Source: a virus
Taxonomy: Duplodnaviria > Heunggongvirae > Uroviricota > Caudoviricetes
Length of the DNA stretch: 64,000 nt
Reading direction: 5' to 3' (one strand)
IMG/VR virus record: IMGVR_UViG_3300006899_000574
Shown: positions 5,227-58,516 of the stretch, piece after piece
Layout: each line of letters opens with the position of its first letter
Position numbering within the stretch: the stretch's first letter is position 1
The notes under the pieces: model-generated
Seen by the model: only the letters and a program-made list of their open reading frames with translations
What the model was told of the DNA's origin: nothing
Database searches by the model: none
Position numbers and translations under genes: made by a program

Positions 5227-5492
5227 GACTCGCGCTGGGTTCCAGCGTCAGCGCAATCCTGGTGCGTACGGAATTTTGCCACACCCAGGCATACCATTGC
5301 CCGTTCTCCAGCCAGATGATCTTCTGGACCCCCGGCTGATCCCAGGCCGCCCTTACGGAATCCGGAAGTGATACGCGGTGTCCACATCCGCCGCAAAACT
5401 GCGTAGCCCCGCTCCTGCCAGACCAGCGAGAGCTTCTCGTAGGTCTCAAGTCTGGCTTCTTGTTGTTGAATAAAGAACGGTGAAAGGCTCAT
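5223..5492 (-). CDS. hypothetical protein (start at MSLSPFF, ATGA overlap with the ThyX stop)
   Basis: ORF plus coupling. Confidence 0.35.
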   Translation of the reverse strand: MSLSPFFIQQQEARLETYEKLSLVWQERGYAVLRRMWTPRITSGFRKGGLGSAGGPEDHLAGERAMVCLGVAKFRTHQDCADAGTQRES

Positions 5493-7393
5493 GATTTTTT
5501 CTCCAGAATCTTCCTGAATTGTACTACCCCAGCAGGTAGATTGCCTGACATCCATGGGTCAAGAACAATTTTCTTGTCAACTCCCCAGTCGCTACGCGGG
5601 GCCAGCCAGAACGCCAGGTCGGGATGCATGACCTGCATTTCAGCCGGTGAGTTCCCTGACACACAAGTTTTTCCATTTCTACGAACAATGAGTAACCCAG
5701 TCGAAACTGTGGCACAGTAGACCTCTCCTGTATATTTGATCTTAGAGAAGTTCTTACGTAGATGTCTGGAGTCGTTGAGGATCGACGAGGGCCTACGGCA
5801 CAGATTTAAGGAGAACACGGGTTGGGACTTGTGTGAACGTCGGTGTCGGTTCCCTTGTCGTAACGAAAAATTGTATCCATGTAGTGCCCCCAAGGTTTGG
5901 ATCTGATCTGCTAGTTTCGGACTAGTAGTCGCATACGTCCAAGTGTGCCTTTTGATGCTTCCGTCGGAATTTTTCAAGCCGTCCATCAGTGCGTGAACAA
6001 ACTCTGGAGAAGACTCATATATCCCATCAGGGAGACATTTTTGCCGATTGATATCATATAGCAAAGTATGGAATTCCTTAGCGAGACCGTCTCTCGCAAC
6101 CCAATAGGTGTTGTAATGCGGTTTTTCTACTAACTCAAAATTCAGGGTCTTACATATTGCGCGCAGATACGCAATTTTGCGAGGTTTCTTCAAATGGAAA
6201 GTTAACCTGCGGCCTCCGTGTTGCCCTATATCACGGGGGACACTCCCATCTCCAAGAAAAAATCCAACCAGTTTACCGAACTGGGGGTCGTCCTCGCTCC
6301 ACATCAAACAGTCTACATAGTTTGCTTTGGACGTAAGCGCGCAGTTGAGCATTTTTAAAGGAGAGGCCACGACTACTTCAAAAGGCGATTTTGCTACCCT
6401 TTCATTTGCAGGCCTGAGAGAGAAAACCTGACTCCCCCAAGGTTTTGAGGCATAGATCTGATGAGAGGGAGTGATCATCAAATTAAACCGGTGCGAAACT
6501 ATATGATACATCTCTTCATTGATCAGGCTATAGGACAGGAGTTGAGCTGGCCGTTCGAACCCCTGAAATTTTGAATCCCGAGGGTCCACGGTAGCTAAAC
6601 TATCATTTGTCTGAACGTTAGGCCACTTGATGAACCCTCTAGTTGTAAGCACCTCTGTCTCCGCGTCATAACAGGCGTGGATCGGCTGACTGCCGACGAG
6701 CTTCTGGTAGGTCCAGAGGTCATCTGCTATGGTGCTGGGCTTGTTGTTGCGCAGATACGAAACCCTCGCACAGCGTGCCACTGATGTCCGGATGTCTTGC
6801 AGGATCTCCGGTACGTTCTTTTCTACATACAATCTGTACGCATGCGTACGGCGGTCATCCACGTAGGGCAGGTGGATTTCGCGACGTGTCGGCGTGCTTA
6901 CGGCGAACGCATCGGCCATCTTCCGGGCCAATATCTGCATGTCGTGCTGGGCATCGCCATGGAGTCTGAGGTTGAAGAAGTTCTGTAACCCCGGAAGGCC
7001 AGTCGTCATTACAACTCTGACGTAGAGAAAGGGCTCCAGGAGCCTGTTGCAGATTTCCTTGTGGACCCCGAGTGCGTGCAGACATCCGGCGAACATCTTC
7101 GCACAACGCATGGCGGCTTTCCATGTCAGCCTGGCGACGGCATCCCGCCAGCCCGTCATATCAGCCCGAGGTTGCATGCCGGGGCCATTGACGGGGAACT
7201 CCGCCGGCACGTAGCAACAGCTCAATAGCAGAGTCTTGTGTGGCACTGCACGAGATGACGCCGCCGAGCGCGAGAACGTTCTGTGCGTATTGAGTTGCGC
7301 CAATAGGAAGCGCGGGAAGCACAGCTCGAACGTCAGAACGCGGACGCCATTGATGCTGGAGTCCAGGATGAGCTTTGCAGACGTCACGTTCAT
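5489..7393 (-). CDS. thyX: flavin-dependent thymidylate synthase ThyX, interrupted by an intein
   Basis: N-extein FELCFPRFLLAQLNTHRTFSRSAASSRA and NFFNLRLHGDAQHD align to the ThyX core (T. maritima [29 protein letters not shown] / NFLNLRADSHAQWE); the intein is described in the next feature. Confidence 0.6.
   Translation of the reverse strand: MNVTSAKLILDSSINGVRVLTFELCFPRFLLAQLNTHRTFSRSAASSRAVPHKTLLLSCCYVPAEFPVNGPGMQPRADMTGWRDAVARLTWKAAMRCAKMFAGCLHALGVHKEICNRLLEPFLYVRVVMTTGLPGLQNFFNLRLHGDAQHDMQILARKMADAFAVSTPTRREIHLPYVDDRRTHAYRLYVEKNVPEILQDIRTSVARCARVSYLRNNKPSTIADDLWTYQKLVGSQPIHACYDAETEVLTTRGFIKWPNVQTNDSLATVDPRDSKFQGFERPAQLLSYSLINEEMYHIVSHRFNLMITPSHQIYASKPWGSQVFSLRPANERVAKSPFEVVVASPLKMLNCALTSKANYVDCLMWSEDDPQFGKLVGFFLGDGSVPRDIGQHGGRRLTFHLKKPRKIAYLRAICKTLNFELVEKPHYNTYWVARDGLAKEFHTLLYDINRQKCLPDGIYESSPEFVHALMDGLKNSDGSIKRHTWTYATTSPKLADQIQTLGALHGYNFSLRQGNRHRRSHKSQPVFSLNLCRRPSSILNDSRHLRKNFSKIKYTGEVYCATVSTGLLIVRRNGKTCVSGNSPAEMQVMHPDLAFWLAPRSDWGVDKKIVLDPWMSGNLPAGVVQFRKILEKKS
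5651..6673 (-). mobile_element. intein with LAGLIDADG homing endonuclease inside thyX (about residues 241-581)
   Basis: Block A CYDAETEVLTTRG, block B TPSH, two LAGLIDADG motifs (LVGFFLGDGSV, HALMDGLKNSDGSI), block F/G VYCATVSTGLLIVRRNGKTCVSGN followed by Ser. Confidence 0.55.
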
Positions 7394-13017: not shown

Positions 13018-13758
13018 TTAGTTTTTTTTACGATCTGGTGTGTATGTGATCATCGCGCTCACCTGGTCGTCGTGCGCATCTCCGTAGATCACGCCATCTG
13101 AGGCCACGATCAAGTTGTCGCCAGGATTCAAAGACATCGATAACGGCATCAGTGAGATGTCCTGTTTGCCAATGATAATGTGGTGCGTCGGTAGCTCCTC
13201 CACGGGGCCGCCGGTGCACCGCTGGACGAATAATCTGTCGATACCGCCGGCATACAACACCTGTCCATCTGCGCGTAACCACATCACCAGAGCCAGGGCT
13301 TCTCCGCCATTTTCTCTGCCGATATCATACAGTCCGCGATTCATGGCCTTGAGGATTTCTACCGGGTCTTTCTCCCGTAGCGCGAGGAACACCACCAGAC
13401 ATGCAAAGGCCCCGGGGAACACATTCTCGCCATGACTGATGACGTCGCCCGCCACCACGAGCAGATCGCCGCCGGGGATTTCCTTGATGCGGAAAAAGTC
13501 TCCGCCCGGTAGCTGAGTGCGCGCACTGCTCCGAATATAGCAAAAAGCCGTGTAGTTGGAATAGGAGGACAGATCCTCGGGCTGAAGAAGAGACTTATGC
13601 GCCCCCGACAGCAGGGACAGCGCACGCAGGCGCTGAGCGTCGGGCAGTAATGCGGGTGACACGGGCGTCGTGCTGGCACTTGAGTCCCCAGCCGTTTTCG
13701 AGAATAGAGATAAAACCGAATCCACCCCTCTCTTTACTGCGCTCCAGAATTTTTCCAT
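13018..13758 (-). CDS. PP2C-family Ser/Thr phosphatase (SpoIIE/RsbU-like)
   Basis: GDVISHGE (DVSGHG-type motif) ... ASDGV; fold length fits a PP2C domain. Confidence 0.6.
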   Translation of the reverse strand: MEKFWSAVKRGVDSVLSLFSKTAGDSSASTTPVSPALLPDAQRLRALSLLSGAHKSLLQPEDLSSYSNYTAFCYIRSSARTQLPGGDFFRIKEIPGGDLLVVAGDVISHGENVFPGAFACLVVFLALREKDPVEILKAMNRGLYDIGRENGGEALALVMWLRADGQVLYAGGIDRLFVQRCTGGPVEELPTHHIIIGKQDISLMPLSMSLNPGDNLIVASDGVIYGDAHDDQVSAMITYTPDRKKN

Positions 13759-14620: not shown

Positions 14621-16627
14621 CTATTGGATTTGCATCACTTTGAATGCCTGTCGTGCGGCATCTATCCGTTTGCGGAAATCGACGTCCGCAAAATCCGGCT
14701 TCTTGCCGCTGGCCTTATATGCCAGGCGCGTCTGTTGCTGTTCATAGCTCACCGATGGCATGTAGCCGACTTTGTGTATGCTGAAGGCGGCGTGTGCCAT
14801 GGCATCACTGACGTCCTTTGCGTGAACTCCGCATTTCGAATTCTCGAAGTCACCTCTGTAGTCGTTGACTCTCATGCCCTTGCTGTGATCAATCTTCTCC
14901 GGGCCCCTTTTGTTCTTTGCTCTCGTGCGGTAGAGGCTGTCGAGATTGTTCCTGACGAAAACATTGGGCCCCACTTTGAGTCTGCCGCTGAGCATTCTGG
15001 AGTAGAGCTGTGTATAGGGCTGGATGTCGATATCCACCGAAGACCTTACGGCATTGATGTCGTTCCTCACCAGATACTGGATGAGGTTGGCGCTTTGGTA
15101 CTGGTCAACACTGACCTGCTCGATGTGAACTCTGCCTTTGTCCCGGAGATCACGGATGAACATCTGGATGGCTTCGAGGTTGATGCCGTTGGGGCCCGGT
15201 GCCACCGCAAATGCGAAGTCGAAGATCGTCGTGGCGGTACCATCTTCCATTTGTTCCTCGTGAGCCATGGCGATGCCTGCGACGTCTCCTCGAACGCTGG
15301 TTGCCAGATCCACTCCGATGTAGCGCGGCGCTGACGGCGCGCGGATCAGCGACAGATCAACTCCGTTCCCTTTTGAAAAGAACAGGTGGCTGACGGCGTT
15401 CCAGATCAAATCCTCCGGGATGGACTTGCTGTCGGCCACAACTGAGGCTTCGACGTTGGGAAGCGTGGGGTCGAAGATCGACGCAATCAGACTGCGTTGT
15501 TGCAGGAACTTGCTCTCGCTGGTGGCGGGCTGGCCCGCGATGTCTTTGATGGACTTCAGCAAGTTGTCTTCAAAAGCCTGTTTGACATCAATTGGAGGGG
15601 ATACCACCAGACCGGGGGCGTAGTTGTGTTCCTCTCCGGGTTCCAGGATACGAGCGGGAGTCTCGCCATCCCCCACGCAGACATGGAAGACCTGGGAGTT
15701 GTCTTTGTGGTATGCGGGGAAAAACTTCTCACAGAGTTCCGGAGCATCCCACTGCTTGCGCCAGCGGAAGTATACCTCTGGCCGGTATTGCATCTTGCTG
15801 ATGATGTGCTGTTCGATCTGCGACTCCGCCAGGTTTGCCGACGTATCCAGCAGTGTGAACGCCAGGTAGTTGTTGCCAACAGTGCCTCGAATACGACTGA
15901 CGGTATCGGTGTAGATGCGGAAAATCTGCTCCTCGGTGGCCCCGGCTTTCTCGATAAAGAAGCCGATCTCTGAGATGAAGGCGCAGATGATGTTGGCGCC
16001 GATGATTGACAGCGCGTCGTCATTACCCGTCACGAGTTGCAGGCCAGATGCCAGCGTGATCTCCCCGACTCTCGCGGCCTCTGAATACACGATGATGTCG
16101 TCTCCAGCGGCTTCCTGCTCTTCTCGCACGTTGTCGCGGAAGTGTGTCTTCTGGAACCTCGGGCTCTGCTCTAGAATCTCGAACAGCGGCTGAATGTAGA
16201 GTTCATACACCTTCTCATACTTGAAGCTCATCAAGTAGATGGAAAGCGCGGAGGTTGAGATCAAATTGTAGGCCCCCGCCATGCTGGTAAGGTGGTGCAT
16301 GTAGACTATGACATACGCCATGAGCAGGACAGATCCCACGCTTTTTCCCATACGGACAGCGCCGTATAACGCCACCTGCGAATACTTTCCGCTGAGGATA
16401 TTACAGAAGTCCTCCTTGACGTGTGCAAAGAGTTTGTTGGCCACTCCCTCCGGAAGCCAGCCGTTGCGGGGGTCGAGGAACTCCTCCGGGCTGGGGGGCG
16501 GTTTGCGAAATGTGTGTCCCTGCAACTGGCGGAGCAACGCAGTGTTGCCGCCGAGGATCTCCTTCACTGCCTGCTGTTCGACGGCACTGAGCTTGTTGAA
16601 ATCAGCGGCAAGATTTTCTGGCAACAC
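14621..16627 (-). CDS. terL: terminase large subunit
   Basis: Walker A-like ATPase GAVRMGKS, C-terminal nuclease-like YIGVDLA..D; 668 aa, a gp17-like size. Confidence 0.85.
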   Translation of the reverse strand: MLPENLAADFNKLSAVEQQAVKEILGGNTALLRQLQGHTFRKPPPSPEEFLDPRNGWLPEGVANKLFAHVKEDFCNILSGKYSQVALYGAVRMGKSVGSVLLMAYVIVYMHHLTSMAGAYNLISTSALSIYLMSFKYEKVYELYIQPLFEILEQSPRFQKTHFRDNVREEQEAAGDDIIVYSEAARVGEITLASGLQLVTGNDDALSIIGANIICAFISEIGFFIEKAGATEEQIFRIYTDTVSRIRGTVGNNYLAFTLLDTSANLAESQIEQHIISKMQYRPEVYFRWRKQWDAPELCEKFFPAYHKDNSQVFHVCVGDGETPARILEPGEEHNYAPGLVVSPPIDVKQAFEDNLLKSIKDIAGQPATSESKFLQQRSLIASIFDPTLPNVEASVVADSKSIPEDLIWNAVSHLFFSKGNGVDLSLIRAPSAPRYIGVDLATSVRGDVAGIAMAHEEQMEDGTATTIFDFAFAVAPGPNGINLEAIQMFIRDLRDKGRVHIEQVSVDQYQSANLIQYLVRNDINAVRSSVDIDIQPYTQLYSRMLSGRLKVGPNVFVRNNLDSLYRTRAKNKRGPEKIDHSKGMRVNDYRGDFENSKCGVHAKDVSDAMAHAAFSIHKVGYMPSVSYEQQQTRLAYKASGKKPDFADVDFRKRIDAARQAFKVMQIQ

Positions 16628-16734: not shown

Positions 16735-17052
16735 ATGACAGAGACCCTCCGCGCATCCGTGGATCTGCACTACAAATCCCGGCTCACGGCCAGAGAGCAG
16801 AAAGTCTTTCGACTTACCCGCGAAGGAAAGCTCCAGGCTGGGAAGCTCACCAGCTACATCTCGCGAAAAAGCACATGGCGCGACGGACAGGACTTCACTT
16901 TTCGGGTTCTCTGGGGCACAAGTAAGGCCGCCTGTCAGGAAGGCTATCTTCAATCGTGCATCGACGAATTCTCCTGGAGATTTTCAAATCGAAAAAACGA
17001 GAATATTTTCCACGATTACATGAAGCGGACGGTGCTTGTTAAAACAGCGTAA
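16735..17052 (+). mobile_element. IS1595-family (ISXO2-like) transposase C-terminal tail remnant, copy 1
   Basis: YLQSCIDEFSWRFSNRKNENIFHDYMKRT matches the IS1595 Tnp C-terminus (Y.dEFxFRxNxR). Confidence 0.5.
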
Positions 17053-17056
17053 GAAA

Positions 17057-17611
17057 CTATCTAAATTCATCAATTCCGATGGGTATTGCTTTTGAAGAAT
17101 GGACACGAACTTGATTTATGCGACCGTAAGTATCTTCTACTTTTGGATGCACAGGCAAATCGCTTCGTCCGCCAAATCTGTTCCTATCATTCTTCCTGTA
17201 ATGCTCCCAATCTGGGCCATCGTCTGGTTGTAGATCGCTTTTTCTTGCTTTGAAAACAAGAAATACAGGATCACGCCCAGCGTGAGCTAAGTATGTTCCA
17301 AGACCATTCTTAGAACCAAGAAAAATAAACTGCCCAAGTGGATTCTTCCACACAGATTTTTCTGTTGCAACATCTCTATTCCAGCCAGAATCCAAAATTG
17401 CCTGAGCGTTCTCTCTGCTTGTCGCATGGTATAGAGCTACATAATTATCATCTGGAATGCTGGCTAATCGTTTCCAGTTTCCATTTGGATCGATTGCACC
17501 GTCAATGATGTAGTACCTACCAAAATCATCGTGTTTTTCAATTCGAGAAAAATTTGCTTCATACAGCGATCCGCCGCTCTCATAAAGCCTTTGCAATTCT
17601 ACCAGACGCAT
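17057..17611 (-). CDS. putative H-Y-E class ADP-ribosyltransferase fold protein (PARP/Tpt1-KptA/DarT-like); cargo 1
   Basis: VALYHATSRENAQAILDSGW resembles the HG(S/T)...IL..G NAD-binding motif of PARP/Tpt1/DarT; N-terminus MRLVELQRLYESGGSLYE is shared with the ORF at 18583-18957. Confidence 0.45.
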   Translation of the reverse strand: MRLVELQRLYESGGSLYEANFSRIEKHDDFGRYYIIDGAIDPNGNWKRLASIPDDNYVALYHATSRENAQAILDSGWNRDVATEKSVWKNPLGQFIFLGSKNGLGTYLAHAGRDPVFLVFKARKSDLQPDDGPDWEHYRKNDRNRFGGRSDLPVHPKVEDTYGRINQVRVHSSKAIPIGIDEFR

Positions 17612-17681
17612 ACCTGTATCTTTAGTGATCTGAGGCGATTCTAATGCGTCATAAGCCTGTGTACACTGAGGGATAATTCCG
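17612..17681 (-). promoter_or_regulatory. conserved upstream region of cargo gene 1, including a candidate sigma70-like promoter (TGTACA-16-TAGAAT) and the GGGATAATTCCG motif
   Basis: About 85% DNA identity to the region upstream of cargo gene 2. Confidence 0.3.
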
Positions 17682-17682
17682 T

Positions 17683-17707
17683 AAAAAAAAGGCGGAGGTT
17701 ATCCGCC
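17683..17707 (-). terminator. rho-independent terminator
   Basis: GGCGGA-ggtta-TCCGCC hairpin with an A8 run on the plus strand (T8 on the minus strand). Confidence 0.5.
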
Positions 17708-17733
17708 TCTTGAACAATGGACCGCTCTGCCTG

Positions 17734-18348
17734 TCAGCCGTAGATGACCTCCCCGAAAATCGAGAGTTGCAGTGCGACATCCGCCATAACGGCATCCCAG
17801 TCTCCGGCGTCGTAGAAGCTCGCGGGAGCATCGCCGCGCCACTTACCGTTCTGGATCATGAGGTGGTAGAGTTCGAGGCCCTTGGCGAAGCTCGCGTAGG
17901 TCACCGTCCAGAGCTTCAAGCCCGTCCGCTCATCGGTTTCCTCAACATGCTGGGCCACAGACGCTTTGTAGTCCATAAACTGATCTACTGTGGTCATGTC
18001 CTTTGTGGCGTCTGCGCAGGAGGAGCACAGGCACAGCGCAACGTCGGCCCAGGGCTGACCGTCGCTCCCCTTGCAATCCGAAAGCGGATGTGAGTGGTAG
18101 AGCGAGCCTCCGGGCTCATCAGCGGCGTCTTTACCGCAGGCATAACAGGTGAATTCCGCCCCCAGAGTCTCCTGATCGTGGAACTTAAATCTGCCTTCGC
18201 CTTCGTAGGAGAACTCTGTGCAGATCATGCAGAAACTGTATTCCGGGTAGTTCTCCATGACGTCTTTCGCGAGCTGGAGATAGGTCATGCCTCCCTGACG
18301 TTCTTCCGCAATGCGCTGATCAATTGTTTTTGTCGCTGTTGTTTCCAT
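17734..18348 (-). CDS. Cys-rich hypothetical protein (possible zinc-binding)
   Basis: 204 aa; CMICTE, CYACGK and CLCSSCAD clusters; bracketed by an inverted GGGATAATTCCG pair. Confidence 0.5.
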   Translation of the reverse strand: METTATKTIDQRIAEERQGGMTYLQLAKDVMENYPEYSFCMICTEFSYEGEGRFKFHDQETLGAEFTCYACGKDAADEPGGSLYHSHPLSDCKGSDGQPWADVALCLCSSCADATKDMTTVDQFMDYKASVAQHVEETDERTGLKLWTVTYASFAKGLELYHLMIQNGKWRGDAPASFYDAGDWDAVMADVALQLSIFGEVIYG

Positions 18349-18402
18349 GGAGACACCATATCCCCCGGCACAAAGTTGTCAACACAAAATGCAAAAAAAA
18401 AA

Positions 18403-18414
18403 CGGAATTATCCC
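18403..18414 (+). repeat. GGGATAATTCCG motif in inverted orientation (also at 17670-17681 and 19028-19039)
   Basis: Exact 12-mer three times within 1.4 kb. Confidence 0.6.
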
Positions 18415-18419
18415 GAAAC

Positions 18420-18572
18420 ATGAAGCGTGGGATTATCGGCTCGTATCACCACATCAGCCCGAAGTACCTGCAAGCATACATCGACGAATTTTCCTGGAGG
18501 TTCAGCAATCGGAAGAACGAGAACATCTTTCACGATTTTATGAAGCGAACTTTGCTGGCTACTGCGGCGTGA
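18420..18572 (+). mobile_element. IS1595-family transposase C-terminal tail remnant, copy 2 (50 aa)
   Basis: MKRGIIGSYHHISPKYLQAYIDEFSWRFSNRKNENIFHDFMKRT is the canonical IS1595 Tnp tail. Confidence 0.55.
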
Positions 18573-18582
18573 ACTGGTTTGG

Positions 18583-18957
18583 TCAGTTTACAGTATGATT
18601 TCCAGAGTTCAGTTCGTCCATTTCGGTACCTTCTTTGATCTCAAGTTTATGTTTTCGTGCTATTGTTTCAATAGCTTTTTTCTGCACCTTATTCAAGTGA
18701 TCCCATCTCATTCGCAACCACAGTTTTTTATCATTGGTAATGATGAAATCACGCCAGCCAATGGCTCTCGCATCTGCTCTTATTGAATCATGAAGATTAT
18801 CATTTTTATCTCGATTAAGAATTGTAAAAGCACCAAGACGATGATTCTCCCATTTTGACACTTCACCTTCTGGTGAAAGCCAGAACGATTCATAAGTAAA
18901 AGATTCATACAATGATCCGCCACTCGCATAAAGTCGTTGTAGTTCTACCAGTCTCAT
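18583..18957 (-). CDS. hypothetical protein; cargo 2 (N-terminus shared with the ART-like gene)
   Basis: MRLVELQRLYASGGSLYE then divergent sequence; 124 aa. Confidence 0.5.
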   Translation of the reverse strand: MRLVELQRLYASGGSLYESFTYESFWLSPEGEVSKWENHRLGAFTILNRDKNDNLHDSIRADARAIGWRDFIITNDKKLWLRMRWDHLNKVQKKAIETIARKHKLEIKEGTEMDELNSGNHTVN

Positions 18958-19039
18958 GTCCTTTGTATCTTTAGTAAACAGGCAGGCGATCCAGTTCGAT
19001 CAGACGACATAACTGGATGTACTCTGCGGGATAATTCCG
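18958..19039 (-). promoter_or_regulatory. conserved upstream region of cargo gene 2 with the GGGATAATTCCG motif
   Basis: Duplicate of 17612-17681. Confidence 0.3.
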
Positions 19040-19072
19040 AAAAAAAATCCCCCGGCTGTGACCCCGGGGGAT
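19040..19072 (-). terminator. rho-independent terminator downstream of the capsid gene
   Basis: TCCCCCGG-ctgtga-CCGGGGGA hairpin with an A8 run on the plus strand. Confidence 0.55.
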
Positions 19073-19097
19073 TGCTCAAGTAGGCTCTTCAGAGGGA

Positions 19098-20654
19098 TTA
19101 CTTGATGTTGTTGATTTGCAGGAGCTTGATGAAGCCCGGCTGAATCACGTTTTCGCCCTCAACATGCGCGAGGACAACTTCACGATACATCTGTGGGTAG
19201 TCCAGACCAGCACTGAGTTCTGTCAGTGTGCCGAACGCCAGAGACGGTTCGCCTTCTTCTTGCGCGTTTTTGTATACACAAATCGCTTCTCCAGAAGATG
19301 AAGTTCCCGCTACTGTTGTGGAGTGACTTGGAGTCACGTAGACGTCGATGTCCGCAAGTTTACCCGCGAGATAGGAAGCGCCAACCTTCTGTTGAGAAGA
19401 AGCGGATTTCCACTGGAGGTTCTTACGGAAGTAGTTCACGGCTTTCGGGTTGCCCACGATTTTCGTGATCTCACCACGTTGCAGTGCATCGAAGATATCG
19501 CCACCGATGTTATCGATGGTTGTCAGGATACGCTGAGCGTGGTTAAAGTCGTTGTCGTCGTTTCCACTTGCCGGATCTGCGTCGAACACATATGGAGTGC
19601 TCTGTCCCGCTACGCGTCTTGCGAGCTGGAAGGCTTTGAAGTCACGGCGTTTTGCCATCTCGTCGCCTGCGCGCTTGATGATCTGCTCGTCGAAGTCGCC
19701 GAGTCCAGTGGTCTCGAACGTCAGTTCGGACATCTTGGAGTAAGCGATGCGAATCGGATGCATCATGAGGTGGAATGGACGCTTGTAGACTTTCAGCTGA
19801 ATGTCGTTGTAAGACGAGTAGTTCGCGCTGTTTTCTGCATCCCATACTGCCTGCGCACGGATTTCAACACCAAGTGCTGGAGCCGTAGTCAGAGTCACAG
19901 AGAATGTTCCCGCTGTGTAGCTCACGGTTCCCGAAGACACAGTGGCTGTTGTGCCGCCGCTACCGTTCGGAGTTCCGATGAGGTTTCCCGCACCGTCGTC
20001 TGTGCCCACAAACGCATTACCTACAACGATTTGCACGCTGTGTGGCTTGATATTTGTAGGAGAGAATGTTCCTGTGAACGTTGTAGTCGCGCCGTCACCT
20101 GTGGAAGGTGTGCCGTTGATGGTCTGGAAAGCTCCGCCGTAATCCGCAGTTACTGCGCCGTAATCGTAGATACGATTGCCAGCTGTAGCGCCGCGAATAG
20201 ATGTTCCGTAGACTCCGTCTACATAGAAGAGCGCGTCGTTTACAGACGTAAGTGCCCATTCTGTGAAGACGTCAGCACGGTTGCTGTTCGCCACGCCGAT
20301 GCGGACGATGCGCAACACGTTCTCTGGAGACGTGCCGAAAGCCGAGGAGATTTGGGTTCCGGATTCCCGGATGTGAAGCATGTGTCTGCGCTGGTTTTCC
20401 AGGAGCAGTGCTGTGTTCCGTGCAATGGTAGGAGACTTGGCGTAAACGCTTTCCAGATATTGTCCTTCTGGTCTGCGGTTCCATTCTTCTACAAGACGGT
20501 CCAGAGCTACAATGCGTTTTTCGATGTACTGCTCGCGAGACGCGGCAGGACGATTTTCAGTCAGTGACTGCTGTGCAGGAAGTCGGCGTCCGTGCTTGTA
20601 GGCAACGGGTGCTGGGAGACGACCGGCAACAGGCGCATTTCTGAGTCGTTGCAT
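19098..20654 (-). CDS. putative major capsid protein
   Basis: 518 aa; the ORF is bracketed by strong terminators at 19040-19072 and 20792-20826 (the upstream one separates it from the scaffold-like gene); Gly/Thr-rich insertion domain; lies downstream of a scaffold-like gene. Confidence 0.5.
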   Translation of the reverse strand: MQRLRNAPVAGRLPAPVAYKHGRRLPAQQSLTENRPAASREQYIEKRIVALDRLVEEWNRRPEGQYLESVYAKSPTIARNTALLLENQRRHMLHIRESGTQISSAFGTSPENVLRIVRIGVANSNRADVFTEWALTSVNDALFYVDGVYGTSIRGATAGNRIYDYGAVTADYGGAFQTINGTPSTGDGATTTFTGTFSPTNIKPHSVQIVVGNAFVGTDDGAGNLIGTPNGSGGTTATVSSGTVSYTAGTFSVTLTTAPALGVEIRAQAVWDAENSANYSSYNDIQLKVYKRPFHLMMHPIRIAYSKMSELTFETTGLGDFDEQIIKRAGDEMAKRRDFKAFQLARRVAGQSTPYVFDADPASGNDDNDFNHAQRILTTIDNIGGDIFDALQRGEITKIVGNPKAVNYFRKNLQWKSASSQQKVGASYLAGKLADIDVYVTPSHSTTVAGTSSSGEAICVYKNAQEEGEPSLAFGTLTELSAGLDYPQMYREVVLAHVEGENVIQPGFIKLLQINNIK

Positions 20655-22729: not shown

Positions 22730-23113
22730 TCAGGCCTGAAGCGTGCAGGGAGTCGTCATCAGAGATGAGAAGCTCAAGGCATGTGCGGTGACGTTTCGGA
22801 GGCCGCGCAGTGCTTGTTGTTGCCGCAGGCGGCCCGAGGGGTTCATGGAGTGCAACACCACAACAGCGGGGCACAACAGTTCGTGCGCCTCCATCCACAA
22901 CGTGACTTCGTAACCGGTGTTCTCCACCCTGGTCACCATGACTTCACCACCGAGATCGTGATCGAGAAACGCGATGTCGAAACTCTGGGACGTCAGTGCC
23001 TGTATGGCTTCAGCCGCTGTGTGAACAAAGACAACGTCGTGTCCGGGCGTCAGCCATCTGCTGAAAGCCCGGTGCCGGTTGTCATCATCGTCAAGAAAAA
23101 GGATGCGCATCAA
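22730..23113 (-). CDS. stand-alone CheY-like receiver (REC) domain protein
   Basis: ILFLDDDD acidic pocket, phospho-acceptor FLDHDL, VVLHSMNP; 127 aa. Confidence 0.55.
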   Translation of the reverse strand: MMRILFLDDDDNRHRAFSRWLTPGHDVVFVHTAAEAIQALTSQSFDIAFLDHDLGGEVMVTRVENTGYEVTLWMEAHELLCPAVVVLHSMNPSGRLRQQQALRGLRNVTAHALSFSSLMTTPCTLQA

Positions 23114-47355: not shown

Positions 47356-47525
47356 TTACGGGCCTCCCACCTTCTCATCGTAACCGGAACCCCTGAAGCC
47401 GGGCATCCCTTGGTGCAACACTTGACAGTCTCATCCCAGGTGTCCCAGCGGTAAGGTCGTTTACCGCAGAACGGACACAGTTTTGCATTCAGCACTCGAT
47501 CATTCTTGTCTGTTTGGATCTTCAT
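47352..47525 (-). CDS. small zinc-ribbon protein (57 aa, below the ORF-track cut-off)
   Basis: Hand translation MKIQTDKNDRVLNAKLCPFCGKRPYRWDTWDETVKCCTKGCPASG... Confidence 0.3.
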   Translation of the reverse strand: MKIQTDKNDRVLNAKLCPFCGKRPYRWDTWDETVKCCTKGCPASGVPVTMRRWEARK

Positions 47526-48513
47526 ACAGTCCTCCTACTGGGATAAATTCCACAACCCAGACCCACGGGTTTGATTCCCATGATGCGCGATCTTTGTTGA
47601 TTGAATCCCACAGCGCACGAAAGGCTCCGGTAGCTGTCGCATACCCATGCGGTGCGCCGCCAGCAAATCCATAAGCCAGACCGTCCTGCCACGGCCAGGA
47701 CACCAGACCTTCAGCTAATGCATCTTTTTCGCTGATGTCCTGCAAGCGCTCCATTCTTACGTCAGTGATTTCTAACGTTATGCGGGATGCCCAGCGAGGC
47801 GAACAATCTATTCTATTATCGAAAGGAATCCATGTCTCATTCTTCAGTATGCGGGCTATCGTCTTGGGTGATAGATTATATTCTTTCGAGAGAGTCCATG
47901 CGCTTTTACCGGACACCCGCATTTCTTCAGCCTTTTGCATGGTGCATTTAGCATTATGATGGTCTTCATGGATTCCTCGCCCATGGGCTTTTCTGTCCAA
48001 CCAATTGCTTTCGTAATTACCCCAGTCAAGGTTTTCCGGGGCGTTGTCCAGCCTGTCCCCACTCAGATGGCGAACGCATGGCTTAACTATTGACTTTGGT
48101 GCTGGTCCATACCATGCCTCACATACAACAACATGGACACTTACGTTTACGTCTGCGCCACCTTTTCGAAGAGTAGTTCGCTCATACCCAGAGTTCGAGA
48201 TATGTGATTTTATTGGTTTCCAAATGCCTGTAGATTGCGACCACAATCGTCCTTTAATATCTGCCGCATACTTAGCATCGTAACCGGTTAAGACCATCGC
48301 TGGGATCAGACGATCGCCTTGCTGGCCGTAAGGGCAGACGATGCGTGAGCCCAGACCGTGATTAAACCTGTCTACCTCGTCATTGAAATAGCCATCATCT
48401 GCGATCCGCCGCGTCTGCGTCTTGCGTCCTTCGAGAATTGCGCGGACCATCGGCCCGGAGAATAAGATTGGTCGTTCCTTCATTTCGAAGGATGCTCCTT
48501 CGCACGGACACAA
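47500..48513 (-). CDS. ASCH-domain protein interrupted by an in-frame HNH endonuclease domain
   Basis: N-terminus ILFSGPMVRAILEGRKTQTRR and C-terminus ITLEITDVRMERLQDISEKDALAEG...VWVVEF form an ASCH fold; the central VHVVVCEAWYG...VRHLSGDRLDNAPENL is an HNH_3-type nuclease. Confidence 0.55.
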   Translation of the reverse strand: MCPCEGASFEMKERPILFSGPMVRAILEGRKTQTRRIADDGYFNDEVDRFNHGLGSRIVCPYGQQGDRLIPAMVLTGYDAKYAADIKGRLWSQSTGIWKPIKSHISNSGYERTTLRKGGADVNVSVHVVVCEAWYGPAPKSIVKPCVRHLSGDRLDNAPENLDWGNYESNWLDRKAHGRGIHEDHHNAKCTMQKAEEMRVSGKSAWTLSKEYNLSPKTIARILKNETWIPFDNRIDCSPRWASRITLEITDVRMERLQDISEKDALAEGLVSWPWQDGLAYGFAGGAPHGYATATGAFRALWDSINKDRASWESNPWVWVVEFIPVGGLYEDPNRQE

Positions 48514-55554: not shown

Positions 55555-56648
55555 TTGCGGAACCCCATCACGAAATAAAAATTCTCATCATCTCGATGTA
55601 TCCGTGTGGCATGAATGTGGTGCCCGGGATCACGAAGATGGAATACGATGTTTCCACTCCCTTTCTTCAGGGCGCCTAACGCTCGTTTAAGATACAGGCC
55701 CGGAATTGCTCTATCGAAACCAGTCAGCGCGTCGAGATCCCCGCTGGCCTGTAACTGCTCGGACGCGAATGATTTCGAGCTTCGATGCTCCAGTGCTACA
55801 CCTTCCGGCCTGATCGTCAGAAACAGCTGGTGGTCCATGCTTTTGTCTGCGGCCACCAGCAAGCGCGTAAGTGCAGTGACAGTGCTGTCGTATGAGAGAC
55901 ACAGTCTGGATGGATGATCGAATATCTGTCTGCGCTCGTCAGCCGGCGTGTTCTGAATCGCAAGAGTTTGCCGAAGTGGAAACCAGAATTCCATCCCTTC
56001 GGCACTGAAGTTTTGTATCACGGTGTCTGCGGCTCGCAGGTAGTTCACCGTCACGGACTCCGTGAGTCCCAGAGCCGCCAGGGTCTTGATAATCTCCACG
56101 CCGTATAATACGGGTTGCGCCACCTTGTGCCCGGTATGTTGCCTGACTACAGCCAGTGTGCGGCTGTCGCTGGCAATAGCGGTTTCGTCGCAGAACAGCG
56201 CGACACCGGCATAGCCATGCGTTTTTCCGGTAAACGGTAACAGGTCTGCAAGGCTCTTCACGTCGGCCAGATGGTCGGTCTGGAACGGCACCAGAGTCTC
56301 CAGAACATCACATAACGACTTCTCGGGGTAGCGCATCTTGAAAGCCGGCATGCTGTAAGTGGCTCCGGAGAACTTCAGATCGCGCACCCCCAGCGTCACC
56401 AGCTCCTGGTGCGCATCAGTCAGTCGGCTCAAGGAAGCCAGGGTGGCTACCGGATAGATGGCTTCGAACGGCGTAGCGGTCTCATGCGGCGCGGTGTAGC
56501 GCACGATCGCCGCCGCAGACAGCAGTTGAATTTGCAATTGCTGTTCGGTTACTCGAACACGGATACGATTGTGATGAGCCTGTAGCTGATCCGCCAGGCG
56601 CGACATCACAGCTACCACTCGTGCCAGAACTTCTGCTCGGATTTTCAT
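55551..56648 (-). CDS. hypothetical protein immediately downstream of the SbcC-like gene (not Mre11-like; clamp-sized)
   Basis: 365 aa; no DxH/GNHE phosphoesterase motifs. Confidence 0.45.
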   Translation of the reverse strand: MKIRAEVLARVVAVMSRLADQLQAHHNRIRVRVTEQQLQIQLLSAAAIVRYTAPHETATPFEAIYPVATLASLSRLTDAHQELVTLGVRDLKFSGATYSMPAFKMRYPEKSLCDVLETLVPFQTDHLADVKSLADLLPFTGKTHGYAGVALFCDETAIASDSRTLAVVRQHTGHKVAQPVLYGVEIIKTLAALGLTESVTVNYLRAADTVIQNFSAEGMEFWFPLRQTLAIQNTPADERRQIFDHPSRLCLSYDSTVTALTRLLVAADKSMDHQLFLTIRPEGVALEHRSSKSFASEQLQASGDLDALTGFDRAIPGLYLKRALGALKKGSGNIVFHLRDPGHHIHATRIHRDDENFYFVMGFRK

Positions 56649-58516
56649 TCCACAACCTCCCCGTTGCGTAACTCCACAACATGGGCCCCAAAGTCGGAGA
56701 CCAGCATGTCAACGGTGTCCTGCCGATGCGTCACAATGATCCACTGCTTGACGCCTGGAGCGAAAGCCACCGCATTGGCGAACAGTCTGGCACTGTTGCT
56801 TTCAGTCGTGCTGGCGTCAACTTCATCAAGAATGATGAATTCCGACCCCTGCAATGCGCAGAGCGCGAGCCGGAACGCCATGGAAAGGATCTGTCGGTAG
56901 GCGCCGCCCAGCAAAACAGCTGGCGTGAACTGGCCGTCTCCACTGCTGAAGAAGAACTCCACGCTCTTATGGTCGCGCTTGATGCTCACGCGATGGTCGC
57001 TAAACCTCGCGAAGAACTCATTCATACGTTTCTCCACGAATGCCAGGCCAGACTCCAGCAGGTAGGCACTGAACTCTTTCTCCAGCAGGCCACGGGATTT
57101 TTCCGCCACTGTCTGGGCCTGAGTGAGTTCCTCCAGTTCCGCAGTCTTCAGCGTGATATCTGCGGCATTCCGCAGGCGCTGTTTCTCTTGCGCGAGGTTG
57201 AAGTCCAGTGCGGCTCTTACCTCGCGTTCGAAATCCCGATAGGCACGGGCACGCGCTTCCAGTTTACGATAGCCTTCGATATCAAATTCCGGCGGCGGGG
57301 GATAGGATAGAGGCTCCTGAGTTGGAGCACCTCCGGGGTCGGGAAGCGCTTGTAATTCCTTGCGCAGTTTCTCCAGCTCAACCTGTGCTTGTTGAATCAC
57401 GGCCCGCACCTGCTGATTCTTAACGTACGCCGCGCGCAGGGTCTTGATCTCCGCACTCAGAACTTTCACCCTGGGTTGCAACACCTGGAGTTCCGAGCGA
57501 AGCTCCTCAACCTGCTTTTGCAACGGCAGGGGATCGCCGATGTAGTCCTGCGCGCACTGCGAGCATTTTCCGGAGGCGATGAGCTTGAGCTTCGTTTCAC
57601 ATGAAACGATCTCTGACTGGATCTGCTGTATGCGCAAGGTGGCTGTGCGTTCTTCTGTTTCCAGAGGCTGGACATCCGCTATCGCAACCAGCTTGACTTT
57701 CTCCGACGCCAGCAGGGAAGCCTTCGATGCCACGGCGTCCTGGGCTTTTTTGTAAGCACGGCACTGACTGTCGTGCGCCTGCCTGGCTTTCTCAAACTCC
57801 TGTCGCTTCTGGTCTACGGCCGCAATGGCCTTTACGTGTTCTTCTCTGAGTTTCAGATACTCTTCGTAGGCCTTCTGCGCTTCCTGAAAGCGATCGATCA
57901 CCTGTGGGTCTTCCCGGGACTCCGGGATCTGCATGTCGTCAAACCGCATGGCCTGAAGGGTCTTCAGGACCGCCCGGGCTTCGGACGCATTGTCTTTGCA
58001 GGTCTTGGCACGGGCCTTCAGGAGTTCAACTGCCTTGCTTACGGTGTCCATCCCCAGTACGGACTTCAACCGCTGAAGACGTGGCGCGGCGTCATCAAAG
58101 ATGACGGATGTCGTGCGATGCTGGAGCGCAATGCTTCCGTACAGTGCGAGGTCTGTATCCATCAAGGTACCGAGAATCTCATTCACTGCTGTGGCGCCTT
58201 CGGCCAGCAACTCTCCGTTGCGCGAAAGAGTTTTTTTGGTGCGCTCAACACCGGCCTGGAGGTACAGCGCGTAGTCAGCTCCGTCTTCGACGAAATCTGT
58301 CTCTATCTCGTAGGTTTTTGCTCCACTGCTGTCATTGACGAAATCCGCCAGATTGGACTCGGCGTAGCCAGTGACAGCCAGGGTGAGCCCCTCAATGGAG
58401 GAAGTTTTCCCGCTGTTGTTGTCCCCGCGCAAGACGTTCACGCCTGGCCGGAGGAGGATGTTTACCTCCCCCGGAATGCGTTTGAATCTCCGCAGACTCA
58501 GGCGACGGAAGATCAC
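56645..58516 (-). CDS. Rad50/SbcC-like ABC ATPase with zinc hook
   Basis: N-terminal Walker A GDNNSGKTS; central coiled coil with GKCSQCAQ (CxxC hook); C-terminal signature and Walker B FIILDEVD. Confidence 0.7.
   Translation of the reverse strand: MIFRRLSLRRFKRIPGEVNILLRPGVNVLRGDNNSGKTSSIEGLTLAVTGYAESNLADFVNDSSGAKTYEIETDFVEDGADYALYLQAGVERTKKTLSRNGELLAEGATAVNEILGTLMDTDLALYGSIALQHRTTSVIFDDAAPRLQRLKSVLGMDTVSKAVELLKARAKTCKDNASEARAVLKTLQAMRFDDMQIPESREDPQVIDRFQEAQKAYEEYLKLREEHVKAIAAVDQKRQEFEKARQAHDSQCRAYKKAQDAVASKASLLASEKVKLVAIADVQPLETEERTATLRIQQIQSEIVSCETKLKLIASGKCSQCAQDYIGDPLPLQKQVEELRSELQVLQPRVKVLSAEIKTLRAAYVKNQQVRAVIQQAQVELEKLRKELQALPDPGGAPTQEPLSYPPPPEFDIEGYRKLEARARAYRDFEREVRAALDFNLAQEKQRLRNAADITLKTAELEELTQAQTVAEKSRGLLEKEFSAYLLESGLAFVEKRMNEFFARFSDHRVSIKRDHKSVEFFFSSGDGQFTPAVLLGGAYRQILSMAFRLALCALQGSEFIILDEVDASTTESNSARLFANAVAFAPGVKQWIIVTHRQDTVDMLVSDFGAHVVELRNGEVVE

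Follow-up and report, generated by a model that had tools for sequence, protein, structure and literature searches.

A phage protein with a predicted ADP-ribosyltransferase fold, encoded on what appears to be a decayed IS1595-type cassette

We describe a small gene in a 64,000-nucleotide stretch of a tailed-phage genome (Caudoviricetes; IMG/VR record IMGVR_UViG_3300006899_000574; the window, hereafter, is this whole stretch at its full length). It is a minus-strand open reading frame (ORF) whose 184-residue product, judged from its predicted structure, very probably folds like an NAD-using ADP-ribosyltransferase (ART). Overall, we think it probable that this protein acts as a mono-ADP-ribosyltransferase effector that uses NAD+ and that it is a small, solo representative of a rare ART family of the H-Y-[EDQ] class, and the flanking sequences indicate that its gene is a passenger on a decayed, non-autonomous IS1595-type cassette.

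Results

A real gene in a low-GC island

The 184-aa ORF is a real gene and not a chance reading frame, because identical protein and near-identical DNA copies exist elsewhere, because the protein has homologues, and because its motif residues are invariant among them. The identical protein is encoded on JGI metagenome contig Ga0068518_1000008 (73,074 bp), to which the window is 100% identical over every stretch compared; sample 3300045330 holds a DNA copy of the gene at 99.9% identity, and protein homologues reach E=1e-37. The contig that carries the DNA copy (L021, equivalent to window 16888-17822) differs at a single nucleotide in 935 nt, a change that converts residue 97 from Phe to Leu, at a position where most family members have Tyr. 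A contig from a further sample, 3300005039, is 100% identical over the adjacent 4 kb, stops some 50 bases upstream of the ART gene and therefore does not confirm the gene itself. The initial annotation had given the coordinates of this ORF exactly, and the peptides that it quoted are found at residues 58-77 (VALYHATSRENAQAILDSGW) and 95-100 (FIFLGS).

The base composition of the region is foreign to its surroundings. The window as a whole has a GC content of 0.54 and only two pronounced low-GC islands, at 16901-17700 (minimum 0.41) and 18301-19100 (0.39). The ART ORF lies within such an island, and its GC content at third codon positions is 0.32, against 0.57-0.71 in neighbouring genes.

The predicted structure is that of an ART

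An AlphaFold2 model built with a 20-sequence family alignment has a mean predicted local distance difference test score (pLDDT) of 85.5 and a predicted template modelling score of 0.80, the low-confidence parts being residues 1-22 and two loops. The model has the split beta-sheet fold of ARTs. Its top structural neighbours are PARP15, PARP13, PARP10, diphtheria toxin and ExoA, and further neighbours include Tpt1, the TASOR pseudo-PARP, TreTu, TreX, Tne2 and RES. Foldseek recovered the same families from the PDB with weak E-values, and from BFVD it recovered Bacillus phage G paralogues, phiRSL1 and giant-virus PARPs. The structural scores are moderate, and the concordance of the predictions across methods and libraries is very strong.

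A rare family of solo proteins and polyvalent modules

The ART protein had no match in Pfam, PHROGs or PADLOC or among PDB sequences, and in NCBIfam it had a single one, to the RNA 2'-phosphotransferase model NF002013, at 13.4 bits (E=0.04; the family cutoff is 231 bits). Among GenBank phages, megablast and tblastn matched neither the query, nor its closest polyvalent relative, nor the solo member P0016, and tblastn with three family members returned nothing from 50,697 deposited phage genomes. A word-index search yielded two homologues only, and HMMER was needed for the remaining relatives: an exhaustive scan of 1.84 billion representative proteins gave 26 matches at E<=1e-3, two of them spurious and discarded, namely the low-complexity repeat proteins P0014 and P0018, with 9-19 repeat matches. 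The family is rare, and it is absent by name from the profile libraries (Pfam, NCBIfam, PHROGs and PADLOC).

The genuine relatives fall into two groups: solo proteins 140-200 aa long, from phages and Bacillus-like bacteria, and domains within giant proteins of 1,511-5,074 aa. Solo members are found on a phage contig beside baseplate-like genes and a CCA-adding enzyme gene (P0016), in a bacterial island near a Cas3 gene, on the Bacillus mexicanus chromosome and on a Rossellomorea plasmid. The giants carry, according to Pfam, ART-PolyVal (up to five copies), NUDIX, GNAT and sigma-70 regions; in six of eight giants the family domain directly adjoins an ART-PolyVal domain, and two short proteins (P0010 and P0015) consist of ART-PolyVal plus the family domain and nothing more. 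Iyer et al. 2017 (PMC5512222) described the same domain architecture for the "polyvalent proteins" that phages and conjugative elements encode, a group for which delivery by the virion has been proposed. Occurrence inside polyvalent proteins is true of the family, while the window protein itself is solo.

Sequence links to known ARTs and a candidate active site

A family profile run against the PDB had Tpt1/KptA proteins as all of its five best matches (E 0.014-0.3), aligned on LYH[AG]T..N...I..G. A second family profile found Tpt1 again, together with PARP13 (E 0.13), in an alignment that reaches upstream into a "DE.GRY..." hairpin; its single best PDB match (E 0.081) was an unrelated pleckstrin-homology protein. 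Among the 20 members taken individually, eight matched the NCBIfam KptA model (best E 0.0027), three the Pfam PARP domain PF00644 (best E 0.002; the query was not one of them) and one DarT (PF14487, E 0.31). Weak as they are, these matches to Tpt1/KptA, PARP13, PARP and DarT always fall over the H-x-T...I..G motif, in agreement with the resemblance to the NAD-binding motif of PARP, Tpt1 and DarT that had been proposed from the sequence at the outset.

Family alignments of 20 and 17 sequences, with members from phages, from polyvalent proteins and of the Bacillus type, show no variation at H62, A63, T64, A69, I72, Y107, D130, D134, W135, T161 and Q167. H62 belongs to an invariant H-A-T on the first core strand of the model (residues 57-65), which HMMER aligns to the HGT of Tpt1; the protein has, then, a strand 1 His within an H-x-[ST] NAD-binding motif. 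For the Tyr that in this class stacks on nicotinamide, strand 2 offers two candidate aromatics, the invariant Y107, in GLGTY[LI], and position 97, which is mostly Tyr. Y107 pairs with GKGIYFA of PARP1 only in a non-significant hhalign run (probability 1.8%), for which the sequence used is one that we take to be that of PARP1. Q167 stands directly before model strand 168-171, the partner of the final strand (176-182), and it was matched to the catalytic Glu position by strand order, not by structural alignment; the INQVRVH of the ART protein here corresponds to YNEYIVY, presumably the PARP1 sequence around its catalytic Glu. The hhalign comparisons with the assumed PARP1 and diphtheria toxin sequences (1.8% and 1.3% probability) are uninformative, and the alignment with the toxin is likely to be spurious. 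The invariant D130, D134 and W135 lie in a helical insert some 35 residues long.

On the combined evidence of alignment and model, the family appears to fit the H-Y-[EDQ] class as defined by Aravind and colleagues (PMC9503650), with Gln as its third residue, because His and Tyr are invariant in it and so is the Gln found where the catalytic residue is expected. The fold and the H-Y-E-type class named in the initial annotation are thus upheld. The H, Y and E/D/Q residues that it proposed to locate have candidate counterparts in these three, with Gln, and no acidic residue, at the canonical position.

Two related cassettes in terminator T-tracts

Along the minus strand, the order of transcription is major head protein gene, terminator, cassette 2, a 204-aa gene, terminator, cassette 1 (with the ART gene) and terminase gene (Table 1). 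The two cassettes have common ends and unrelated cargo. One shared end holds the remnant of an IS1595/ISXO2 transposase, the copy in cassette 1 being 75-77% identical in DNA to 18465-18570 in cassette 2; the other consists of a 5' untranslated region (UTR) of about 70 nt followed by the first 18 cargo codons, with 73-81% DNA identity. Residues 293-323 of a Leptospira IS1595 transposase match the cassette 1 remnant in tblastn (E=5e-8), and the nearest relatives of the transposase peptide are in low-GC Leptospira, at 73% identity. The two remnants differ at 14 synonymous and seven non-synonymous codons; selection was therefore still acting on them as they diverged, which speaks for two related elements and against a recent local duplication. 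There is no complete DDE transposase (ISXO2-like) anywhere in the window.

A 13-nt core, CGGAATTATCCCG, has three copies in the window, one of them with a single mismatch, and all lie at cassette ends. Two of them enclose cassette 2 as a perfect inverted pair, with A10 on one flank and A8 on the other; cassette 1 has the one-mismatch copy, followed by A8, and lacks a left inverted repeat. On the transcribed strand, both A-runs read as the T-tracts of intrinsic-terminator hairpins. Cassette 2 sits in the terminator T-run after the major head protein gene, and the T-run of the 204-aa gene terminator, which abuts the end of cassette 1, is the presumed insertion target. The homopolymer flanks of cassette 2 are compatible with a target duplication and unable to prove one. 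The cassette ends agree with reports on IS1595-family elements such as ISApl4, whose inverted repeats are perfect over 14 bp and whose A/T-rich direct repeats of 8 bp include AAAAAAAA (PMC12561309).

The cassette 1 UTR contains a sigma70-like promoter sequence, TGTACA-16-TAGAAT (17665..17638), that is not conserved in cassette 2. The 204-aa ORF has a sigma70-like promoter of its own (TTGACA-16-TATGGT, 18382..18355), right after the end of cassette 2. No clear inverted repeats could be defined around the Leptospira transposase copy, and exact-pattern scans of the viral, metagenome and genome collections recovered neither the cassette end nor the transposase remnant. No relatives of the phage were found through its terminase and head protein in IMG/VR and JGI contigs. 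The sequence features of the cassette mark the ART gene as a passenger on a decayed, non-autonomous IS1595-type element, and the earlier suggestion that it is mobile hotspot cargo is corroborated by the low-GC cassette, the IS1595 remnant and the inverted repeats.

A leader common to the two cargo proteins

The first 18 codons of both cargo ORFs encode a leader with the consensus MRLVELQRLY[E/A]SGGSLYE, 17 of 18 residues being identical, and beyond residue 19 the two proteins are unrelated. Seven leader codons differ between the cassettes, six synonymously and one non-synonymously, which indicates selection on the peptide. In the AlphaFold2 model the leader forms a helix and linker of its own, modelled with low confidence (pLDDT 55-60). 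The 124-aa cargo of cassette 2 has a single homologue, 79% identical, on another low-GC phage-like contig (L022) that lacks the cassette ends; it too has the leader, in a more diverged form (MKLVDLRQICESNKSLYES), and the leader is therefore native to that gene family and the ART ORF a chimera of leader and ART domain. Short amphipathic leaders of the form M-[KR]-x-hydrophobic...E are also seen in other members of the ART family, such as P0016 (MKSFKKFLLEE) and P0002 (MRLRALIEKEE). The leader contains L-x-E motifs. By analogy with T4 internal proteins and Alt, one might speculate that it is a delivery or capsid-targeting signal; no prohead protease was identified among 22 window ORFs scanned with Pfam or PHROGs.

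Table 1. Coordinates of the ART gene, the two cassettes and adjoining features in the window
Feature	Position	Strand	Details
Large terminase gene, 668 aa	14621..16627		tblastn against annotated phages: 25% identity, E 5e-23
Cassette 1 (left part), IS1595/ISXO2 transposase remnant	16945..17052	plus	last ~35 codons; convergent with ART ORF
ART-fold ORF, 184 aa	17057..17611 (stop included)	minus	ATG at 17611; from the ORF list
ART-fold domain, residues ~23-182 (predicted)	17066..17545	minus	beta-hairpin prelude (residues 23-41), then core
Codon of Q167	17111-17113	minus	candidate core residue
Codon of Y107	17291-17293	minus	candidate core residue
Codon of F97	17321-17323	minus	candidate core residue
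Codon of H62	17426-17428	minus	candidate core residue
18-codon leader of ART ORF	17558..17611	minus	MRLVELQRLYESGGSLYE; direct repeat D2, 81% DNA identity; cassette 2 counterpart 18904-18957
Cassette 1 5' UTR	17612..17681	minus	homologous to cassette 2 18958-19039
Cassette 1, right terminal inverted-repeat core	17669-17681		CGGAATTATCCCT read on minus strand
Terminator-like hairpin + T8 of the upstream 204-aa gene	17683..17710	minus	GGCGGAGGTTATCCGCC then A8/T8 run
204-aa ORF between cassettes	17734-18348	minus	GC-normal; phrog_2355 (unknown function, E 1e-7), weak zinc-ribbon matches
Sister cassette 2	18393..19047		A10 run; 13-bp inverted repeats 18403-18415 and 19027-19039; A8 run
Cassette 2 transposase remnant, 50 codons	18420-18572	plus	Pfam PF12762 E=1e-9
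Cassette 2 orphan ORF, 124 aa	18583..18957	minus	same leader as ART ORF; then 5' UTR
Major head protein gene, 518 aa	19098..20654		tblastn against annotated phages: 28% identity, E 1e-8

Other features of the window

Elsewhere in the window, a 634-aa minus-strand ORF (5489-7393) combines a ThyX (Thy1) thymidylate synthase with a LAGLIDADG-like domain, which suggests an intein or homing-endonuclease insertion; a mild low-GC dip at 5801-6200 coincides with it. A 246-aa minus-strand ORF just past the terminase gene (13018-13758) has a SpoIIE/PP2C-type phosphatase domain (Pfam E 4.5e-7). Also on the minus strand are a T4-like portal domain (PF07230, 38063-40453), about 18 kb from the head protein gene, an HNH endonuclease ORF (47500-48513) and an SMC/RecF-type, SbcC-like ATPase (56645-58516). 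Pfam and PHROGs leave most of the other large ORFs unmatched; the phage is very divergent, with no relatives in IMG/VR or among GenBank phages. The window contains no RNA family according to Rfam and no tRNA according to ARAGORN. The 73,074-bp JGI contig ends at window position 15093, inside the terminase gene, through which the window reads; the window is thus the contig in rotated or circularised form, pointing to a complete phage genome of about 73 kb.

Discussion

In the model that we favour, for which the gene, family, fold, conserved residues and cassette anatomy have been computed here, and NAD+ use, transferase activity, target and effector timing are what we infer, the 184-aa protein would bind NAD+ and move a single ADP-ribose onto a host macromolecule, either a protein or a nucleic-acid end. 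Such ADP-ribosylation would serve as a host takeover or counter-defence effector. The enzyme would be expressed from a low-GC cassette, itself presumably derived from a non-autonomous IS1595-family element that landed at the T-run of a terminator lying between the gene for the major head protein and that for the large terminase. In giant phage polyvalent effectors the same domain is one module among several ARTs, NUDIX and GNAT domains.

At the same time, several observations weigh against this reading. Every profile link to known ARTs falls below the family thresholds, and the residue equivalences are founded on secondary-structure order and on an hhalign alignment that is not significant. 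The canonical catalytic position has no acidic residue, Gln being invariant there, and replacing the Glu by Gln in diphtheria toxin and PARP1 severely impairs the enzyme or limits it to mono-ADP-ribosylation. Position 97, Tyr in most members, is Phe in the query and Leu in a 99.9%-identical variant (P0001). Among the neighbours of P0016, P0029, P0031 and the window gene there is no macrodomain, immunity or antitoxin partner that would point to a target, and the cassette is decayed, so that its cargo could be heading to loss.

Could the protein instead be a Tpt1/KptA-like enzyme that places ADP-ribose on a phosphate, removing 2'-phosphates from RNA or capping 5'-phosphate ends of RNA or DNA? 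It might then act with the cREC protein of the phage in NAD+-dependent RNA repair, or modify ends in a way that counters host anticodon nucleases. Tpt1/KptA is indeed the best and most repeated sequence-level relative of the family, in an alignment that continues upstream of H-x-T into the "DEkGRYei.g.." hairpin that closes the Tpt1 N-terminal lobe; polyvalent relatives contain NUDIX domains, and P0016 adjoins the gene of a CCA-adding enzyme. The phage also encodes a cREC_REC protein of 127 aa (22730..23113, minus strand; Pfam E 6.9e-17), and cREC has been linked only to RNA repair and to the processing of ADP-ribose cyclic phosphate, ADPr>P (PMC9503650). The cREC ORF is flanked by two large unannotated ORFs, and a functional link to a Tpt1-like ART is possible; it belongs, however, to the phage backbone and lies about 5 kb off, whereas the ART arrived on an imported cassette, and no RNA ligase or 2H gene is found among 30 ORFs scanned with Pfam. 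We consider this alternative unlikely, in view also of the winged-helix N-lobe, which is mostly absent, of positions opposite the IRA and GHS motifs that have no Arg or His, of a strand 2 with Tyr or Phe in place of the His of the H-H-h clade, and of a match some 13 bits strong against a 231-bit cutoff.

The invariant Gln in place of the catalytic Glu or Asp leads to another proposal, that the domain is an inactive ART-fold module, comparable to PARP13 and the TASOR pseudo-PARP, whose ligand would be NAD+, ADP-ribose or a host factor and which would aid ART-PolyVal in polyvalent proteins. ART-PolyVal does adjoin it in most of the giants and in the two two-domain proteins, and inactive PARP13 and TASOR pseudo-PARP are among the structural matches. 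Yet the candidate NAD-pocket residues H62, A63, T64 and Y107, together with D130, D134-W135 and Q167, never vary, not even in solo bacterial and phage proteins without ART-PolyVal, which looks like an active site under selection, and natural PARPs without the Glu are still active mono-transferases; an inactive module seems to us improbable. More doubtful still, and in our view very unlikely, is an NAD+-degrading toxin or a dying passenger gene without any current role for the phage. TreTu, TreX, Tne2 and RES, inter-bacterial conflict toxins or NADases, are among the structural neighbours, but beside the solo copies on Bacillus-like chromosomes there is no immunity gene, which speaks against a potent toxin. 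Gene death would be in keeping with the lost transposase, with the inverted repeat missing from cassette 1 and with a sole nucleotide difference in the 935-nt contig that happens to be Phe97Leu; against it, two independent metagenome samples have the ORF in intact and essentially identical form, all family-invariant residues are kept, and the leader common to the two cassettes is under purifying selection.

A mono-ADP-ribosyltransferase effector, of the kind that polyvalent proteins bring to bear in batteries, is therefore the interpretation that we retain. Beyond it lies a bolder and quite improbable picture, in which the family would be a new Tpt1-derived clade that uses Gln together with D130 and D134-W135 to ADP-ribosylate a nucleic-acid end or other non-protein target, the leader would be a phage-specific signal that delivers its cargo into the capsid, and the cassette would be a plug-in slot for injected effectors.

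ARTs are central weapons on both sides of the phage-host conflict, as Alt, ModB, DarT, AcrIF11 and the ARTs of polyvalent proteins attest. In this context, the predicted fold and candidate active site (H62, Y107 and Q167, with D130 and D134-W135) would annotate a recurring "dark" module of giant polyvalent effectors, of which the 184-aa solo version is compact and easy to express and test, and the invariant Gln with its Tpt1-like prelude makes the family a good starting point for the question of what ARTs of this kind modify. The cassette, for its part, may represent one concrete route by which a phage takes up effector genes, through insertion of an IS1595-type element into terminator T-tracts.

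Comparison with known systems

Tpt1/KptA, of the H-H-h clade, is the closest system at the sequence level and has in common with the family the LYH[AG]T..N...I..G motif, the "DE.GRY" hairpin and a C-lobe of ART fold. Membership in Tpt1/KptA was nevertheless rejected at 13.4 bits, with most of the N-lobe missing and the Arg and His of the tetrad absent. The counterpart of the Tpt1 N-terminal winged-helix lobe is its last hairpin only (model strands 23-41). In the HMMER alignment the family's "avdvd---gnw" faces IRARYGHS of Tpt1, with no Arg or His there; we take the IRA and GHS motifs to be catalytic and, with the positions of the Arg-His-Arg-Arg phosphate-binding tetrad likewise assumed, the region of its first Arg-His pair is absent from the family. 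Strand 2 has Tyr or Phe where the H-H-h clade has His, and the family differs from Tpt1 also in its invariant Gln and its 35-residue helical insert (D130, D134, W135).

The H-Y-E group of PARPs and diphtheria toxin supplies the top structural neighbours and shares the H-x-[ST] motif. The family's G-x-G-x-Y-[FL]-[AG] resembles GKGIYFA, as we presume the PARP1 sequence to read, in an alignment that is not significant, and N-Q-V-R-V stands where PARP has N-E-Y-I-V. The differences are Gln for the catalytic Glu and the lack of helical regulatory or accessory domains, and membership in the PARP catalytic domain PF00644 was not accepted, none of the matches (three of 20 members, weakly, and not the query) reaching the gathering threshold. 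DarT/DarTG was set aside as well: only one of 20 members matched, at E 0.31, no macrodomain DarG adjoins the window gene, P0016, P0029 or P0031, and PADLOC was blank.

With ART-PolyVal, the H-Y-D ART of the Tox-ART-HYD2 clade, the family shares the superfamily and the class (His on strand 1, an aromatic on strand 2) and also the niche, since its relatives occur in the same giant polypeptides, usually right beside ART-PolyVal. It differs in having Gln for Asp, in the insert and in the C-terminal half, and the window domain is solo, at 184 aa. ART-PolyVal (PF18760) found no match at E<=1 in the query or any of the 20 members, and the idea of a divergent ART-PolyVal was dropped when hhalign against 15 ART-PolyVal domains gave 14.5% probability over strands 1-2 only. 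T4 Alt, ModA and ModB are likewise phage-encoded ARTs thought to modify host macromolecules, and Alt is delivered by the capsid, as proposed for polyvalent proteins (PMC5512222). Assignment to their R-S-E class fails on the strand 1 residue, an invariant His and not Arg, and on an alignment with no STS or ExE motif. The premise, in the initial annotation, that the ARTs known from phages belong to the R-S-E class no longer holds: in phage polyvalent proteins, H-Y-D enzymes (ART-PolyVal) are described as commoner than any other protein-modifying domain (PMC5512222), and KptA- and PARP-like ARTs have already been catalogued in phages (PMC9503650).

The cassettes resemble IS1595 elements in their PF12762 remnant, in the 13-bp perfect inverted repeats and in A-run flanks compatible with A/T-rich 8-bp duplications (PMC12561309), and they recall phage "morons" and passenger-bearing IS1595 elements in their foreign base composition and their placement between a terminator and the next gene. 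Unlike IS1595 elements, they retain only 35-50 codons of transposase and are non-autonomous, cassette 1 has no left repeat, and the two have a common protein-coding leader ahead of unrelated cargo. The ART superfamily, its H-Y-[EDQ] class and their use by phages were already known (PMC5512222, PMC9503650); what is new here is a distinct family, unnamed in profile libraries, that combines a Tpt1-like prelude with an invariant Gln, that recurs as an unannotated module of polyvalent proteins and that, in the window, is carried on an IS1595-derived cassette.

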